DNA of 64,000 nucleotides from a plasmid. The notes under the pieces were generated by a model. That model was not told where the DNA came from. It saw only the letters and a list, made by a program, of their open reading frames with translations, and did not search any database. Location of the stretch: sequence record NZ_CP085281.1; one strand, given 5' to 3'. The translations under genes were made by a program, and so were the position numbers. How positions within the stretch are numbered: position 1 is the stretch's first letter; the number at the start of each line of letters is the position of its first letter. Shown here one piece after another: positions 6,246-39,827 of the stretch.

Positions 6246-6275
6246 GGGGACGTGCTATCGGCGCTGGTCGGTGGC
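6246..6275 (+). repeat. 28-bp repeat copy a (GGGGGACGTGCTATCGGCGCTGGTCGGTGG), intergenic
   Basis: member of the 10-copy family, consensus GGGGGACGTGTCATTGCCGCTGGTCACAGG. Confidence 0.6.
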
Positions 6276-6419
6276 GCTACGAGGGATCAGGATCGGTTGA
6301 GCGCCACCAGAGCCACTGATCCTGCGGCTGAGGCTGCTGGGTGACCATCTGCTGCAGCTGGTGTGGCAGCTGGTCGCATAGCTGCTCCGCCGGCTGAGCC
6401 TTCGGCCTGCCTTCGCCGC

Positions 6420-6875
6420 TCACGACGGCCACGGCAGATTCTCGTGCTGGTGCTTCCGCGTGGTCCGGACGGCGCGAAGTTCGCGTCGCTGGTCTTGGGC
6501 GTAGCGGCGGGCCAGCACCAGGTCTTGCCACCAGGGGGTGCGCTCGACGTGGCCGGCCAAGGTGTCGATCTGCAGATCGGTCAGGCCGGCCAGGGCGCCG
6601 GCGGCATCGTGTGCGGCCAGGACGACGATACCGCGCATCAGGGGCACGTTGCTGGGCGTGAAACCTGTTGTGGCGAGGTAGATCTCGGTGGCGTTGCGGT
6701 TGACGCGGCGGTGCGAAGATCGGGTCGACGGCGTGAACCAGAAGTCGATGGTCCCGTCGCTGCTGGTGAGCGTCTCCAGGTCGCATTCGCGGATGAGGTC
6801 GGCGATGTCGTCGACGCAGCGGACACGACGCTTGTACAGCTGGCCGTTGTGGCTGGCGACAAGTACTTGGAACAT
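6420..6875 (-). CDS. hypothetical protein; paralog of 62037..62465
   Basis: ATG at 6875 preceded by GAGGAGG; shares FWF, VNR.AT, VPL(M/L)RG, 'AGLTD.QI..L......P.WW' blocks with 62037..62465. Confidence 0.55.
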   Translation of the reverse strand: MFQVLVASHNGQLYKRRVRCVDDIADLIRECDLETLTSSDGTIDFWFTPSTRSSHRRVNRNATEIYLATTGFTPSNVPLMRGIVVLAAHDAAGALAGLTDLQIDTLAGHVERTPWWQDLVLARRYAQDQRRELRAVRTTRKHQHENLPWPS

Positions 6876-36649: not shown

Positions 36650-37632
36650 GGGGTCGGCACCTCCTGGTTGGTGTGCAGGCGTGGCCTTTTGACGATGACG
36701 TTGCCGGTCGGCAGGACGCCGACTGCGATGGGTTGGTTCAACGTGGTGGCGTCGATGCCGAGGGTGGGGGTGATGGCGATCATGACGGCGGTGGGCCCGT
36801 GGTCGGGGGTGAAGTTGAAGAAGACCAGGTCTCCTGGGCTGATCGCGGTGGGGTCGACCCGGTCGCCGGTGTCGATCTGGGCTGCGACGTCCTTCGGCAA
36901 GGTGATCTCTCCCCCGGTGGCCTGGTAGTAGGCGTATCTGACCAAGTTAGCTGCCGAAAAGGCGTTGTTCGAAGGTCCAGCGGTGCTTCCATCTGAGTCG
37001 GTTGCCAGCAATCCGACCTGCTGATTGGCCAGGTCCGCGGCGCGCCGGCCGGTCTCGTCGCCGGGTGTTTTGAGGGGCGCGCCCACGATGTCGCCGGTAC
37101 GGACGGCGTTGGCGCATGCCGCGGTCTTGGCGTCAGCGGTGGGCGGGGCGGTCAGCGAGGCGTATGGGTTTGCGGGGGACGTGCTATTTGCGCTGGTCGT
37201 CGTCGTGGTGGTGGCAGTCACGGTGGTGGTGGGTGTGGTCGTGGGGGGTGTCGTGGTGGCGGGTTGCAGCAGGGTCGTCTCCCAGGTCGTCGCCGGCGGT
37301 GTGTCATCCAGCGCGACGGAGGTGGCCAGGCGGGGGACGACCGCCATGGATGCGGTGTTGCCGATGGAGTATCCGAGTCGGGATTCGCACTGGTAGCTGA
37401 AGTTGGTGCGCTGATCGGACATGCGGCTCAACGCGACGATGGCGGTGATGAGAAGGACGAGGGCCAACACGATGATGACGGCGGCGATCGCCAGGATCAC
37501 CGGCCAGCCCAGTGCGCCGACGGCGGCGGATCCGGCGGAGGCCGCGGCTTTGCGGGCGCCTTGCGCCGCGGCCGCGCCGAGCAGCGATTTCAGCGCTGAC
37601 TGCCGGGGCGGCTCTGGGGGCGGCTGAGTCAT
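36646..37632 (-). CDS. membrane-anchored NlpC/P60-like domain protein (catalytic Cys apparently replaced)
   Basis: N-terminal TM; Thr/Pro linker; C-terminal 'FSAANLVRYAY...PGDLVFF...DHGPTAV' aligns to NlpC/P60 'FDCSGLV...GDLVFF...HVGIY' with Ala at the Cys position. Confidence 0.55.
   Translation of the reverse strand: MTQPPPEPPRQSALKSLLGAAAAQGARKAAASAGSAAVGALGWPVILAIAAVIIVLALVLLITAIVALSRMSDQRTNFSYQCESRLGYSIGNTASMAVVPRLATSVALDDTPPATTWETTLLQPATTTPPTTTPTTTVTATTTTTTSANSTSPANPYASLTAPPTADAKTAACANAVRTGDIVGAPLKTPGDETGRRAADLANQQVGLLATDSDGSTAGPSNNAFSAANLVRYAYYQATGGEITLPKDVAAQIDTGDRVDPTAISPGDLVFFNFTPDHGPTAVMIAITPTLGIDATTLNQPIAVGVLPTGNVIVKRPRLHTNQEVPTP
37174..37203 (+). repeat. 28-bp repeat copy i (GGGGGACGTGCTATTTGCGCTGGTCGTCG), intragenic
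   Basis: inside NlpC/P60-like gene (-); encodes TTSANSTSP. Confidence 0.55.
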
Positions 37633-39827
37633 GATCGGTCCTGGTCATCGCGGGGCTGGGGGGCCGGCGGGGGTGGCAGTGGCCGTGCAGCGCCGGTGGA
37701 TGGGGGTTTCGGTGGGTTCGGCGGTGGCACTGGCCGGCGCGGGTCGGGTGCGTGTTCGAACGGTGAGGGTGGCGCGGCGTCGGCTGGCCCGACGAGTGGC
37801 GCGCCCCCAGCAGCCGTGGGGGACGTGTCGTTGGTGCTGGTCACAGGATTTTCTATGTCGGGAAGCGCAGCTCCCGACCCCGTCTTGGGTGCCGGCGGCG
37901 GCCCTGGTGGCAGGTTGGGGGCGGCCGAGCGTCCGGAATCCTCGAAGGCCTTCGGCGGCGTGGTCTGCAGGTCGGTCGCCGAAAAGGACTGGCTGCCAGC
38001 AGGGGCCGTGTTGTCGGGTGCAGCGCCGAACTGCGTCGTGGGTGGCGCTGAGCGCGACGGCGGGGTCCCCGTGGCGCCGCTGGTGGCCGGCGGGGGCGAC
38101 GGCGTGGGAGGCGACGTCGTCGACGCGGGTGCCTCGGGCATGTTCACCGTGGGTGGTGTGCTGGCGGGCTGCTGGCCATTGCCCTGCGCCTTGTTCTGCT
38201 TGGCCTGGTCCTTTTCGGCTTGCTTAGCGGCCTTGTCGGCGGCGCGTTGGGCTTGCTCCTGGTTGCGTTCGTAGATGTCGGCGCCGCGGTCGAGGTGCCG
38301 GACGATGGAGCTGCGTCCTCCCCGGACGAACGGGGCGACGACGTGTAAGGCGTGGGTGGCTGACGGTGACCGCGCAGCCAGTGCGCCGCCGGCCATGGTC
38401 GAGCCGAGGCCCAAGGCGACGACGCTGGTGTCGCGCAGGAAGCCGCCGGCCTTTTCGTGCAGGATGTTCGTCGTCGGCGGCGGTGGGGTGGCCCCGACGC
38501 TGTTGAGGACTCCGGCTGCGACGTTGGTGCTGGATTCCTTGAGGCTCTTGGACACCGTGAAGATCAGCCGGATGGCCACCACCATCAGGATCAGGGCCGA
38601 GAGCATGGCCACCACGCCGTTGCCTTGTTGGCGGAAGACCACGGTGACGATCTCGCCGATGAAGATGGTCAAGGTGATGTAGGCGAACATCGCCACACCG
38701 GAGAACAGCATCGCGACGAAGGTGTTGACCAGGGATGCCTGGGGTCCCCCGGGGATGACGCCGACGGCGAAGCCCCAGAGCAGCTTGAAGGCGTTGCCTA
38801 CCGCGCGGAAGAACTCGAGCACGATGTGGAATCCGAGGACAGCGCAGAAGAGGGCGAAGATGCCGGCGAACATCAGCATCAGGACGCCGGTGCCCAGCTG
38901 GCCTGGGCTGGGGTTGTCGGCAGTGGCTTTCATGGCAGCCGAGTCGGGGGCGCCGCAGCTGCGGATGCCGTCCTTGATGTTGTCGGGGTCCCCGGAGTTG
39001 ACGCCGTTGCTCCATGCGGTGGCGCAGCTCGGGGTGTTGTCAGGTTGGCCGGCAAAGTTCCACGTCTGCAGCGGCCTGCGGACGAAGGAGGTGGCCAGGG
39101 TCCCCTCAAGTCGGCTGAGGGTCTCTTTGGTGTTGGTGGCGCCGGCGATGGAGTTAGAGCCGAGGCTAACGGCGACGTCGCGACCCTGGGCCAGGGGGCC
39201 GGAGTCGGAAATGACCCAGCTGATGGGCGAATAGACCAATGCGCCGCCGACGATCGCGATGAGGACCGCCGCGGCGGCCTGCGATGCTGCGCGCGGCAGA
39301 TTCTCGCGCAGGATGTTGACCGCGATGAAGGTGGCGGCGATGACCGCGGCGATCGCGGCGACGCCGGGCACGATCTGGGCGGCGTAGCTCTGGGCGACCG
39401 CGGCGACGGGCTGGACCAGGTCGGGCAGGAATCCGAAGCTGATGACGTACATCAGGAACCAGATGGCGACGCCGCCGATCACGACGAACAGACCGGCTTC
39501 GGCTTCGAGCAGGGTCGCCAGGACGGCCTGGGATCCGCCGTCGAGGACGGATCCGTAGTCGGTGGAGATGGCGTAACGCGATAGCGGGACGCCGTAGGAG
39601 TCGGTGACGCCGAGCACGTACAGCAGCGGGCTTTGAGGCCCGATCGCGGCGTGCGCTTCAGCGGGAAAGGTCAACGCGATCAGGCATAGGCACAGCTGCA
39701 GGTAGATCGGCAGCATGGTGAAGCGGCGCAGCCGGGTGGCCGTGGACAGCGCCCAGCCGCGGGCGAAGAGTTGGTTCAGCGTGGGCAGGGCGGGATCCCA
39801 GCCGGGGAAGTACGCGGCGGTCAACAT
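37629..39827 (-). CDS. polytopic membrane protein, VirB6/TcpH/ConG-like, with Pro-rich C-terminal tail
   Basis: ATG at 39827 overlaps VirB4-like stop (TGATG); at least 8 hydrophobic segments; tail carries one 28-bp repeat copy. Confidence 0.55.
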   Translation of the reverse strand: MLTAAYFPGWDPALPTLNQLFARGWALSTATRLRRFTMLPIYLQLCLCLIALTFPAEAHAAIGPQSPLLYVLGVTDSYGVPLSRYAISTDYGSVLDGGSQAVLATLLEAEAGLFVVIGGVAIWFLMYVISFGFLPDLVQPVAAVAQSYAAQIVPGVAAIAAVIAATFIAVNILRENLPRAASQAAAAVLIAIVGGALVYSPISWVISDSGPLAQGRDVAVSLGSNSIAGATNTKETLSRLEGTLATSFVRRPLQTWNFAGQPDNTPSCATAWSNGVNSGDPDNIKDGIRSCGAPDSAAMKATADNPSPGQLGTGVLMLMFAGIFALFCAVLGFHIVLEFFRAVGNAFKLLWGFAVGVIPGGPQASLVNTFVAMLFSGVAMFAYITLTIFIGEIVTVVFRQQGNGVVAMLSALILMVVAIRLIFTVSKSLKESSTNVAAGVLNSVGATPPPPTTNILHEKAGGFLRDTSVVALGLGSTMAGGALAARSPSATHALHVVAPFVRGGRSSIVRHLDRGADIYERNQEQAQRAADKAAKQAEKDQAKQNKAQGNGQQPASTPPTVNMPEAPASTTSPPTPSPPPATSGATGTPPSRSAPPTTQFGAAPDNTAPAGSQSFSATDLQTTPPKAFEDSGRSAAPNLPPGPPPAPKTGSGAALPDIENPVTSTNDTSPTAAGGAPLVGPADAAPPSPFEHAPDPRRPVPPPNPPKPPSTGAARPLPPPPAPQPRDDQDRS
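37818..37847 (+). repeat. 28-bp repeat copy j (GGGGGACGTGTCGTTGGTGCTGGTCACAGG), intragenic
   Basis: inside VirB6-like gene tail (-); encodes PVTSTNDTSP. Confidence 0.6.

Follow-up and report, generated by a model that had tools for sequence, protein, structure and literature searches.

A dispersed, asymmetric motif constrained as DNA on large plasmids of Mycobacteriaceae and Nocardiaceae

A motif of about 35 bp, asymmetric and unstructured, is common to large plasmids of Mycobacteriaceae and Nocardiaceae (mycobacteria, Rhodococcus and Nocardia), and selection acts on its DNA sequence itself, the constraint being on nucleotides. It was followed here from the window, a stretch of 64,000 nucleotides of plasmid record NZ_CP085281.1; the plasmid is mycobacterial, of the T4SS/ESX type, and a relative of M. 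avium p1-JPH1. The motif reads (GAAA)-N8-yGACC(A/T)GC-NNN-RAT-GRC-ACG-TCC-CC and contains two −35-like half-sites, TGACC and TGACA/GACAC. Our tentative best explanation is that a plasmid HTH regulator binds the dispersed copies, which would work like the stoperators of mycobacteriophages.

The initial annotation described a repeat in ten copies, and this repeat is real and well above chance: its 14-mer core, allowing up to two mismatches, gave 12 matches in the window against 0.54 expected from dinucleotide shuffles. A 36-column weight matrix, trained solely on copies from other organisms, gave 16 matches at a score of ≥14 and 18 at ≥9, and none on the reversed window sequence or on five triplet-block shuffles. 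All ten positions were recovered, with 18116 corrected to 18115, but the copy number was too low; the window total is 15–16, the weight matrix adding copies at 127(−), 7470(−), 8702(+), 14176(+), 6947(−) and, weakly, 6168(−). The earlier exclusion of an insertion sequence, a MITE, a palindromic operator and a low-complexity expansion was supported, as was the idea of a signal at the nucleic-acid level. The stem proposed at the same time is not a conserved feature; no conserved hairpin was found in the motif, whether as RNA or as ssDNA, its folding energies and G-run frequencies were the same as those of controls, and a search of Rfam returned no match.

The copy at 127..162 (−; weight-matrix score 30.3) has the same orientation as a minus-strand gene and lies 10 nt past that gene's stop; the orthologous copy in p1-JPH1 is found at 126832–126867. 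An intergenic copy at 6246..6281 (−; 35.7), 152 nt past the stop of gene 6420–6959(−) and 235 nt ahead of gene 4032–6011(−), is followed 78 nt downstream by a weak, degenerate copy at 6168..6203 (−; 12.9), and a degenerate copy with a CAGGTCCCC variant occupies the divergent region upstream of gene 6420–6876/6959(−) at 6947..6982 (−; 20.1). The copy at 7347..7382 (+; 23.6), 9 nt past the stop of gene 7031–7351(+), converges with that at 7470..7505 (−; 32.8), which carries ATG in place of ACG and sits directly downstream of what remains of an ADP-ribosyltransferase gene on the minus strand (7511–7694). A degenerate copy at 14176..14211 (+; 22.7) precedes the AbiEi start (14231) by 20 nt, overlapping a possible leaderless promoter, and the copy at 15928..15963 (+; 31.5; listed earlier as 15943) overlaps the TAG stop of AbiEii (14990–15934), continues in frame with AbiEii past the TAG and faces the convergent gene 16049–16795(−).

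Seven intragenic copies had been placed in five minus-strand genes; the seven stand, but their host genes number four. Two of them, 90 nt apart as they also are in p1-JPH1, fall in a linker of a 313-aa protein (17925–18863(−)), at 18115..18150 (−; 31.7; TSDEDTSP) and 18205..18240 (−; 31.0; TSPDDTSP). The central disordered linker of a 661-aa protein (24369–26354(−)) holds three, at 25237..25272 (−; 34.4; SSANDTSP), at 25396..25431 (−; 34.6; TSGNDTSP), 159 nt from the first, and at 25474..25509 (−; 27.9; TSGNDTSP with TCG as the first Ser codon), another 78 nt away. The last two lie in the Thr-rich linker of an NlpC/P60-like membrane protein (36646–37632(−)), at 37175..37210 (−; 38.3; TSANSTSP), and in the Pro-rich C-terminal tail of a polytopic membrane protein (37629–39827(−)), at 37819..37854 (−; 38.0; TSTNDTSP). 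A degenerate in-frame copy at 8702..8737 (+; 17.7) encodes IWADDMSP in gene 8088–8930(+), for which the p1-JPH1 orthologue has ISADDTSP. The peptides cited initially were verified as correct, and the T-S-x-(N/D)-(D/S)-T-S-P reading is kept also in the three copies then called intergenic.

For the coding copies, codon use was compared across 24 copies taken from eight orthologues. ACG encodes the second Thr in 21/21 (20% gene-wide), TCC the second Ser in 24/24 (38% gene-wide) and the rare GAT the first Asp in 12/12 (15% gene-wide), and no synonymous changes were seen against at least eight non-synonymous ones; amino-acid variants include T to M, T to A, P to L and S to W. When orthologues were aligned, the three copies were the sole conserved islands of a linker, about 200 aa long, that could not otherwise be aligned. 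Intragenic copies occupy orthologous positions in eight plasmids, with the spacings of 78 and 159 nt kept, which argues for maintenance in place and not for insertion. Within genes the motif is tolerated solely in disordered Pro/Thr/Ser linkers; because the codons of one frame (ACC AGC ... ACG TCC CCN) suit such linkers, intragenic copies keep the sense orientation and a constant frame, shared by 38 of the 39 sense copies. The host proteins can do without the motif, as orthologous proteins in the sampled regions of four related plasmids lack it. Since codons are frozen, non-coding copies contain stop codons and orthologous proteins can be motif-free, the T-S-x-N-D-T-S-P peptide is a by-product of places that tolerate the DNA motif. 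The suggestion of a mobile cassette that also encodes a peptide fails on the same observations, residues varying while codons do not.

A scan of 185,579 genomes with the exact pattern returned 59 loci, against about nine expected by chance; about 50 were from Mycobacteriales, nearly all on plasmid-like contigs, and many were intergenic or non-coding, some with a stop codon within the "peptide". Among 2.9 million viral contigs the exact pattern matched only twice. p1-JPH1 has 27 copies across 181 kb; the complete 75-kb R. ruber plasmid has 21, and R. opacus PD630 plasmid 5 has four. PLSDB lists four motif plasmids as linear, namely p1-JPH1, pROB01, PD630 plasmid 5 and R. ruber plas2. Nocardiaceae copies are intergenic almost without exception, as judged with our own gene caller, whose agreement with PGAP annotation was established on p1-JPH1. 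Sampled regions of 27–42 kb from four related plasmids (two of Nocardia, THAF192 and M. alvei) gave no matches.

It had also been proposed that every copy has the polarity of the local genes. This holds for all 16 window copies, including 7470(−), which trails the minus-strand gene remnant, but a strict tie to strand does not generalise. Among 121 non-redundant copies, 39 intragenic ones are sense and 6 antisense, and between tandem genes the figures are 31 and 16; overall, co-orientation of intergenic copies is about 2–3:1, and about 25–35% are antisense to the neighbouring genes. Of 76 intergenic copies, 23 start no more than 30 nt past a co-oriented stop codon. Convergent regions hold 13 copies and divergent regions 4, the latter out of 64 classifiable intergenic copies, 29 of which have no co-oriented gene downstream. 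Because the bias between tandem genes is only 31 to 16, and 16 of 21 copies are co-oriented with genes on the R. ruber plasmid, a purely RNA-level or single-transferred-strand reading is weakened.

According to the explanation that we favor, a putative sequence-specific DNA-binding protein from the plasmid gene pool would recognize the dispersed copies, the two −35-like half-sites being of the type read by sigma-region-4-like or WhiA-CTD-like HTH domains. HTH domains recognize GACAC and −35-like sequences (PMC10243135), and stoperators, too, lack symmetry, are dispersed and mostly keep one orientation with respect to transcription (PMC6550527). The spread of copies over p1-JPH1 and the R. ruber plasmid, the 23 of 76 intergenic copies just past co-oriented stops and the 13 to 4 ratio of convergent to divergent regions are likewise reminiscent of dispersed operators. 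The sites would act as stoperators do, or in the manner of a global plasmid repressor's operators; sitting at the ends of genes and within long operons, the protein would reduce transcription or halt it, preferentially in one orientation. The candidate binder is an HTH protein of about 60 aa from the ADP-ribosyltransferase module, whose order is conserved (ADP-ribosyltransferase, motif, HTH, ADP-ribosylglycohydrolase) and in which the small HTH gene lies 20–46 nt downstream of a motif copy. The gene occurs in 40 PLSDB plasmids (Rhodococcus, Prescottella and p1-JPH1), and two plasmids chosen solely for it carry 8 and 20 copies of score ≥14 per 40 kb. The protein matches KorA-domain structures weakly (E about 0.02), as well as HTH_38/HTH_7. 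Neither the 64-kb window nor, despite its four copies, R. opacus PD630 plasmid 5 has the gene; R. opacus B4 plasmids are not among its PLSDB matches, yet pROB01 has the motif. The association may simply reflect one conserved module containing both. Against stoperator-like sites also stand the transfer-operon promoter region (44.3–45.2 kb), where the weight-matrix scan found no copy, unlike the early-promoter operator of phage L5; a motif length two to three times that of a stoperator; and the roughly one-quarter of intergenic copies that are antisense to their neighbors.

Possible, although we doubt it, is a signal at the RNA level, whereby the transcribed motif (…GACCAGCNNNRAUGACACGUCCCC) is bound on mRNA by a protein or sRNA and marks 3' ends, processing sites or stability, or promotes factor-dependent termination just past stops and within long operons. 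The sense excess in genes (39 versus 6), between tandem genes (31 versus 16) and in the window (16/16), the 23/76 intergenic copies just past co-oriented stops and the 13 versus 4 preference for convergent over divergent regions are all consistent with this. Codon compatibility by itself, however, accounts for the intragenic bias, and among the 25–35% of intergenic copies antisense to both neighbors some are high-scoring and abut stops in reverse; conserved structure and an Rfam family are both absent, and changes at conserved positions go beyond pair-preserving transitions.

We consider it unlikely that the FtsK/SpoIIIE-type ATPase of relaxase-less, dsDNA-moving plasmids uses the copies for loading or recognition (compare clt/TRS, KOPS/SRS and uptake sequences), the copies accumulating wherever they are tolerated. 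Uptake sequences likewise show frame-restricted survival in coding regions and gene-end placement, which the motif resembles. In addition, p1-JPH1 and the R. ruber plasmid were typed as non-mobilizable, with no relaxase found, and yet have T4SS-like genes and an FtsK/SpoIIIE-domain ATPase; four motif replicons are recorded as linear; and the catabolic PD630 plasmid 5, without annotated transfer genes, retains a 5-kb module with four copies, as would fit mobilization in trans. Relaxases are missing from M. avium giant linear plasmids, which an FtsK homologue has been proposed to transfer as dsDNA (PMC12803027). The motif is nevertheless 23–35 bp long against 8 bp in TRS, KOPS and SRS, p1-JPH1 and the R. 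ruber plasmid show no strand polarity able to guide a translocase, pVAPN1571 has both a MobF relaxase and the motif, pTHAF192_a is recorded as linear with no copies in the 40 kb sampled, and the orientation bias of intergenic copies is left unexplained.

That the copies are solo transposon ends, or module boundaries of the attC kind used by a site-specific recombinase, is improbable. Direct copies at 14176 and 15928 flank the AbiEi/AbiEii pair, genes such as those for AbiEii and the ADP-ribosyltransferase carry their 3'-end copy along across genera, and a deletion ends about 20 nt from the 7470 copy; Tn3-family ends begin with GGGG and span about 36 bp, as does the reversed motif. Target-site duplications, conserved partner ends and hairpins are all absent, however, where synteny between p1-JPH1 and the window breaks, it mostly does so away from copies, and the fixed intragenic positions and spacings in eight plasmids speak against mobility. 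More improbable still is a promoter for an alternative (ECF-type) sigma factor: non-coding copies contain TGAAC/TGACC and CGTC, some 20–100 nt ahead of co-oriented genes, and the window encodes a sigma-region-4 protein (45184–45912), but the spacer is 13 nt instead of 16–17, its positions rank among the most conserved of the motif, and no −10-like element is enriched downstream. Few intergenic copies lie in divergent regions (4/64), 29/64 are without a co-oriented downstream gene, the transfer operon has no upstream copy, and the sigma-like gene is limited in PLSDB to p1-JPH1, whereas Rhodococcus and Nocardia have the motif. A functional peptide, such as a site of glycosylation, phosphorylation or protease docking on secretion proteins, would fit the 38 in-frame linker copies and the AGC/TCG alternation at the first Ser of a few, but is already contradicted by frozen codons with varying residues, the numerous non-coding or stop-containing copies, the almost exclusively intergenic copies in Nocardiaceae and the peptide-free orthologues of four related plasmids.

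Among known systems, the stoperators of Cluster A mycobacteriophages (L5 gp71/Bxb1 repressor) are, like the motif, non-palindromic, present in tens of copies element-wide in Mycobacteriales hosts, and located mostly in short intergenic gaps at gene ends, mainly in one direction (PMC6550527). They measure 12–14 bp and reside on phage genomes, whereas the motif measures 23–35 bp, resides on plasmids, has many copies inside coding sequence and is missing from the promoter region of the main operon; nor was a repressor of the gp71 type identified for the motif plasmids. In this comparison, GGTGGCTGTCAAG may resemble GGGGACGTGTCAT. IncP KorA/KorB offers another parallel, with many operators of a small plasmid HTH global repressor across the backbone, and the candidate small HTH is weakly KorA-like (E about 0.02); KorA/KorB operators are palindromic and at promoters, unlike the motif. 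The WhiA site (GACAC) and the sigma region 4 −35 element recur in the invariant motif core as GACAC/TGACA with a second TGACC, matching what WhiA-CTD and sigma region 4 read (PMC10243135, PMC3781837). p1-JPH1 encodes a WhiA paralogue, motif-carrying Rhodococcus plasmids have none, and WhiA specificity covers 5 bp without flanking consensus, against at least 18 further conserved positions in the motif. Streptomyces TraB clt/TRS and the KOPS/SRS of FtsK/SpoIIIE are plasmid cis sequences for relaxase-independent DNA translocation, and several motif plasmids have no recognized relaxase but an FtsK/SpoIIIE-domain ATPase; all of those sequences measure 8 bp, clt being clustered and KOPS strand-skewed, whereas the motif is dispersed, longer and without replicon-level polarity. 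Neisseria DUS and Haemophilus USS are short, dense, gene-end signals, sometimes in inverted pairs, whose frame restriction within genes yields a recurrent by-product peptide. The motif shares their high density, gene-end placement, occasional inverted pairs, confinement within genes to tolerant protein segments and particular frames, and by-product peptide, but DUS and USS occur genome-wide in naturally competent bacteria, whereas the motif is a longer signal, occurs solely on plasmid-type DNA of Mycobacteriales and is biased in orientation between genes.

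The repeat is real and is broader than could be seen from the window sequence alone. A weight matrix of 36 columns, trained solely on copies from other organisms, identified 16 sites in the window at a score of ≥14 and 18 at ≥9, and none in the reversed window sequence or in five triplet-block shuffles. All ten copies listed in the initial annotation were found, together with additional copies at 127(−), 7470(−), 8702(+), 14176(+), 6947(−), and 6168(−). That the repeat exceeds chance was also shown by the 14-mer core, which gave 12 matches with up to two mismatches against 0.54 expected, and each copy in the window was aligned with the direction of the local gene, as had been described. 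Four genes, rather than the five reported, contain the seven intragenic copies. Spacings between same-strand neighboring copies recurred (78 nt, six times; 90 nt, three times; 120–122 nt, five times; 159 nt, four times) in window 24369–26354, 17925–18863, and 6168–6281, as well as in the related Mycobacterium avium plasmid p1-JPH1 and two further loci (L019 and L062), and were kept even across unalignable intervening sequence.

A logo built from 113 distinct copies resolved three parts: an A-rich block (GAAA) at −27 to −23, then yGACC(A/T)GC, and, after three free positions, RAT-GRC-ACG-TCC-CC. The conserved span is asymmetric and comprises 23 contiguous positions plus the upstream GAAA block, ~35 bp in total; no conservation was seen in the logo past the final C. 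Two of its elements, TGACC and TGACA, are −35-like; the latter falls inside GACAC, and GACAC or a one-base variant was present in most copies. A BoxA-like sequence, TGTTCTTTGAC, found upstream of one Rhodococcus copy family, is not a general feature of the motif. The conserved part is linear and lacks palindromic or terminal-inverted-repeat architecture, so the motif is not a MITE (as had been argued initially), a REP/BIME, or an integron attC site; inverted copy pairs are also rare. The stem that had been suggested was not recovered, since folding gave no conserved hairpin (minimum free energy of −12.1 versus −11.5 at control CCCC sites), and an RNA or single-stranded DNA hairpin around the copies was rejected because per-copy folding showed no enrichment over these controls. 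Downstream G-runs followed 12% of copies and 9% of control CCCC sites. A structured RNA family or intrinsic terminator was similarly discarded, as there was no conserved secondary structure and no Rfam match at the gathering score in the window and nine loci.

The window at 20–44 kb aligned to p1-JPH1 (L064; M. avium subsp. hominissuis; linear on record) with 83.7% identity over 80% of the query, and gene order was kept across most of the window. A Gram-positive-type transfer system is encoded in the region, with a TcpC-like protein, a VirB4-like ATPase, a polytopic membrane protein, an NlpC/P60 hydrolase, a DUF4226/SLT protein, and an FtsK/SpoIIIE-domain ATPase. Other genes encode type VII “secretion target” paralogues, an AbiE toxin–antitoxin pair, LigD, an ArdC-like protein, and a sigma-region-4 protein; none of the phage records compared with the window matched. 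The sigma-like gene (45184–45912(+); 242 amino acids, sigma-70 region 4 being the sole detectable domain) is followed by a 437-amino acid ORF with no family match, and the pair was found, among PLSDB plasmids, only in p1-JPH1. Three tandem paralogous segments at 26695–28832(−) are akin to a p1-JPH1 “type VII secretion target” gene and its neighbor, in what looks like a local duplication relative to that plasmid. Two inverted, 100% identical copies of a 1415-bp insertion sequence, each encoding a 424-amino acid transposase, lie at 52363–53777(+) and 59693–61107(−) and bracket ~6 kb in a composite-transposon-like arrangement. At 4032–6011(−), where GC skew (0.30) and AT skew (−0.36) are very strong, lies the gene for a 659-amino acid Ala/Thr-rich protein. 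The 7470(−) copy follows, and is co-oriented with, what remains of a minus-strand gene for an ADP-ribosyltransferase, a gene still whole in p1-JPH1. This remnant (7511–7694(−)) is ~85% identical to the 569-amino acid ADP-ribosyltransferase-like gene at 133540–135249 of p1-JPH1; ~1 kb of the gene has been deleted, and the deletion endpoint lies ~20 nt upstream of the motif copy.

For analysis of the distribution, the exact pattern ACCAGCNNNRATRRCACGTCCCC was scanned against one genome per species for 185,579 species, which returned 59 loci where ~9 were expected by chance. About 50 of these belonged to Mycolicibacterium, Mycobacterium, Rhodococcus, Nocardia, and Aldersonia, mainly on plasmid-sized contigs and often with several matches per contig. 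The remaining matches came from scattered taxa, two of them being ku gene starts read on the opposite strand (L039 1979–2014, Nesterenkonia; L059 4144–4179, Garicola), where the reverse complement of the motif matches the ku 5′ end, GGGGACGTGTCATTCGGGCTGGTCAC, encoding GDVSFGLV; these Micrococcaceae matches were counted as chance despite agreeing at 23/23 positions. Among 2.9 million viral contigs, only two exact-pattern matches were seen. A contig binned as a Rhodospirillales MAG (L034) carries the NlpC/P60-linker copy with flanks near-identical to those in the mycobacterial plasmid gene (TTTTSANSTSPANPYAS), and is probably a mis-binned mycobacterial plasmid contig. Copy density was one per 3–7 kb, with 27 copies (16 minus, 11 plus) spread across the 181 kb of p1-JPH1 and 21, of which 16 were co-oriented, on the complete 75-kb Rhodococcus ruber plas2, whose 18-kb defence island has none. 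Rhodococcus opacus PD630 plasmid 5 has four copies only, confined to a single 5-kb module that also contains an Lsr2 gene and an RHH gene. No copies were present in the sampled 27–42-kb regions of two Nocardia plasmids, pTHAF192_a (Mycobacterium sp. THAF192), and pJCM12272 (Mycobacterium alvei), all four of which have homologous transfer genes. The search for another dispersed repeat in a motif-free Nocardia plasmid yielded clustered RepA iterons only: at least 10 iterons, GTCCGCAAGATATGCG, lie just upstream of repA at 3868–4631 of the Nocardia sp. NBC_00511 plasmid (L002), an ordinary replication origin that contrasts with the dispersed motif. A crude k-mer repeat search of L069 and L070 gave output dominated by GC-rich low complexity.

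The repeat is almost certainly a motif at the level of nucleic acid and not of peptide, on which four lines of evidence agree: non-coding copies, frozen codons, motif-free relatives, and intergenic copies in Nocardiaceae. Many true copies are plainly non-coding, some with a stop codon within the “peptide” (ACCAGCTAAAATGACACGTCCCC) and others in conserved Rhodococcus intergenic DNA. Codons were analyzed in eight orthologues of the 661-amino acid protein (window 24369–26354(−)) from eight plasmids, comprising 24 copies. The ~200-residue central linker of these proteins is unalignable except for three islands, which are the three motif copies, and the spacing between them (78 and 159 nt) was kept in most orthologues. 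Within the copies, the second Thr codon was ACG in 21/21 (20% gene-wide), the second Ser codon was TCC in 24/24 (38% gene-wide), and the first Asp codon was the rare GAT in 12/12 (15% gene-wide). No synonymous changes were found in the 24 copies, which held at least eight amino acid changes (T to M twice, T to A, P to L five times, and S to W); selection on the peptide would have given the opposite pattern. The encoded-peptide reading of the initial annotation was thus not upheld, with codons frozen while residues vary and with internal stops in non-coding copies. The comparison of orthologues with and without the insert also went against it: the orthologue of the 313-amino acid protein (17925–18863(−)) in four motif-free plasmids has no peptide, and the peptide was absent from the orthologues in L002, L069, and L070. 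In Nocardiaceae, 42 of 46 non-redundant copies were intergenic, coding copies being typical of mycobacterial plasmids. The motif is a conserved Mycobacteriales plasmid signal, and its footprint in unrelated proteins is peptide-like.

Placement was assessed for 121 non-redundant copies using a codon-usage gene caller, written for this purpose, that reproduces the PGAP annotation of p1-JPH1. Copies within genes were 39 sense and 6 antisense; the 76 intergenic copies included 31 co-oriented and 16 antisense between tandem genes, 13 in convergent regions, and 4 in divergent regions. Of the intergenic copies, 23 start ≤30 nt past the stop of a co-oriented gene, and the TGA of yTGACC often doubles as the stop codon; antisense copies likewise show a tendency to adjoin a stop codon. 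The tie to the transcription strand proposed initially therefore holds for all window copies but does not amount to a rule (39:6 within genes, 31:16 between tandem genes, 16/21 in R. ruber plas2), and the strict polarity of the window is a strong tendency. Nearly all sense coding copies (38/39) share one frame. Of the two other sense frames, one runs into TGA or TAG within RATRRC and the second would require ATG/ATA and CGT codons, whereas the frame used consists of ACC, AGC, ACG, TCC, and CCN, codons typical of Pro/Thr/Ser linkers. The motif may thus arise and persist in such linkers at little cost, which would account for the single frame and the near absence of antisense coding copies.

Our tentative interpretation is that the copies are dispersed operator or stoperator-like sites. 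Protein-binding sites that would act on transcription are the best match to a motif that is long, asymmetric, unstructured, and selected in both coding and non-coding DNA, and are also favored by its dispersal, its location at gene ends, and its mostly pointing with transcription. Candidate regulators were limited to small HTH proteins and generic proteins of the Xre type (window 49707–50216; p1-JPH1 90753–91163). HTH domains of the sigma-region-4 or WhiA-CTD type recognize GACA(C) and TTGACA (PMC10243135), and the two half-sites of the motif fit such recognition. p1-JPH1 encodes its own WhiA paralogue at 14784–15794, complete with the three WhiA domains; such a plasmid paralogue was rejected as a universal binder because just 11 PLSDB records have one, and no Rhodococcus record is among them. 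One candidate binder is a ~60-amino acid HTH protein, encoded at 82171–82353 in p1-JPH1, with weak resemblance to KorA-domain and resolvase-type HTHs. A motif copy precedes its gene by 20–46 nt, within a module (ADP-ribosyltransferase, motif, HTH, ADP-ribosylglycohydrolase) that is kept across M. avium, Rhodococcus, and Prescottella. This gene was found in 40 PLSDB plasmids, the motif-free relatives not being among them, and two plasmids picked solely for its presence, Prescottella equi pVAPN1571 and R. ruber plas2, had 8 and 20 copies, respectively, at a score of ≥14 per 40 kb. The link is suggestive only, as the gene and one copy share the same module, the gene is missing from the 64-kb window and PD630 plasmid 5, and pROB01 carries the motif, yet no R. 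opacus B4 plasmid is among the PLSDB matches for the gene.

A signal acting at the level of RNA would explain the excess of sense copies and their placement past stop codons, but is unlikely given that a quarter to a third of intergenic copies are antisense and that the motif has no structure. In nine Rhodococcus loci (L007, L014, L017, L020, L021, L036, L038, L043, and L063), a highly conserved non-coding stretch of 290 nt lies downstream of one copy. A −35-like CTGACC plus an extended −10 (TGGTAGTCT) mark its start, and a strong RBS with ATG its end. The stretch may be a long structured leader, and the genes annotated there are on the opposite strand. Somewhat more doubtful again is a role as the cis recognition sequence for uptake of dsDNA by an FtsK/SpoIIIE-type ATPase and a hybrid T4SS/ESX machine in relaxase-less mycobacterial and rhodococcal plasmids. 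Several motif-bearing plasmids are linear on record and have no recognized relaxase, and the transfer of dsDNA via an FtsK homologue proposed for M. avium linear plasmids (PMC12803027) would agree with such a role. Known recognition motifs, however, are 8 bp and polar, whereas strands were mixed in p1-JPH1 and R. ruber plas2 with no replicon-level polarity, and pVAPN has a MobF relaxase yet carries the motif. Recombination sites are a weak alternative, as copies showed no general association with synteny breakpoints between the window and p1-JPH1, the sole exception being the deletion that ends by the 7470 copy. A promoter for an ECF sigma factor or sigma-A was also rejected: the TGAAC-to-CGTC spacer is 13 nt and includes some of the best-conserved positions, −10-like elements show no enrichment downstream, copies are underrepresented in divergent regions (4/64), and none lies between the transfer operon and the sigma-like gene divergent from it. 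The restriction of that gene to p1-JPH1 among PLSDB plasmids does not fit the spread of the motif. A functional linear peptide motif is dismissed on the codon pattern and its absence from some orthologues.

Large mycobacterial and rhodococcal plasmids are carriers of virulence, catabolic, and defence genes, and their regulation and transfer are poorly understood, several having no recognizable relaxase. A plasmid-specific 35-bp signal offers a handle for fishing out its binding protein, can flag plasmid-derived DNA in draft assemblies, and allows global silencing of these plasmids to be tested against transfer marking. If the transfer reading were true, plasmids with the motif module only, such as R. 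opacus PD630 plasmid 5, would be mobilizable in trans. The motif is also a clean case in which unrelated proteins share a recurrent “peptide motif” because a DNA signal forces it on them, and a warning to motif hunters. No prior description was found in the searchable literature, whose coverage is incomplete, so an earlier description is possible; searches by sequence words brought up nothing but unrelated primer sequences, eukaryotic and viral.

Compared with known systems, the motif departs from ECF promoters, which have a −35 (xxAAC) and a −10 (CGTx) 16–17 nt apart upstream of transcription units. The GACAC core read by the WhiA C-terminal HTH occurs, exactly or with one base changed, in most copies, and the additional conservation is unexplained by the known WhiA specificity. 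As a transfer signal it would correspond to Streptomyces clt/TRS in a longer and dispersed form, but KOPS, SRS, and TRS are 8 bp and strand-polar or clustered in clt, whereas the motif is 23–35 bp on mixed strands. The closest known case is the set of stoperators in Cluster A mycobacteriophages. Stoperators are served by a cognate immunity repressor and include one site at the early promoter, whereas no copy of the motif lies at window 44.3–45.2 kb; they are also asymmetric, but at ~12–14 bp are shorter than the ~35-bp motif. The two agree in dispersal at gene ends in ≥20 copies (16 in the window, 27 in p1-JPH1, and 21 in R. ruber plas2) and in a predominant orientation relative to transcription, as seen in the 39:6, 31:16, and 16/21 counts and in all window copies.
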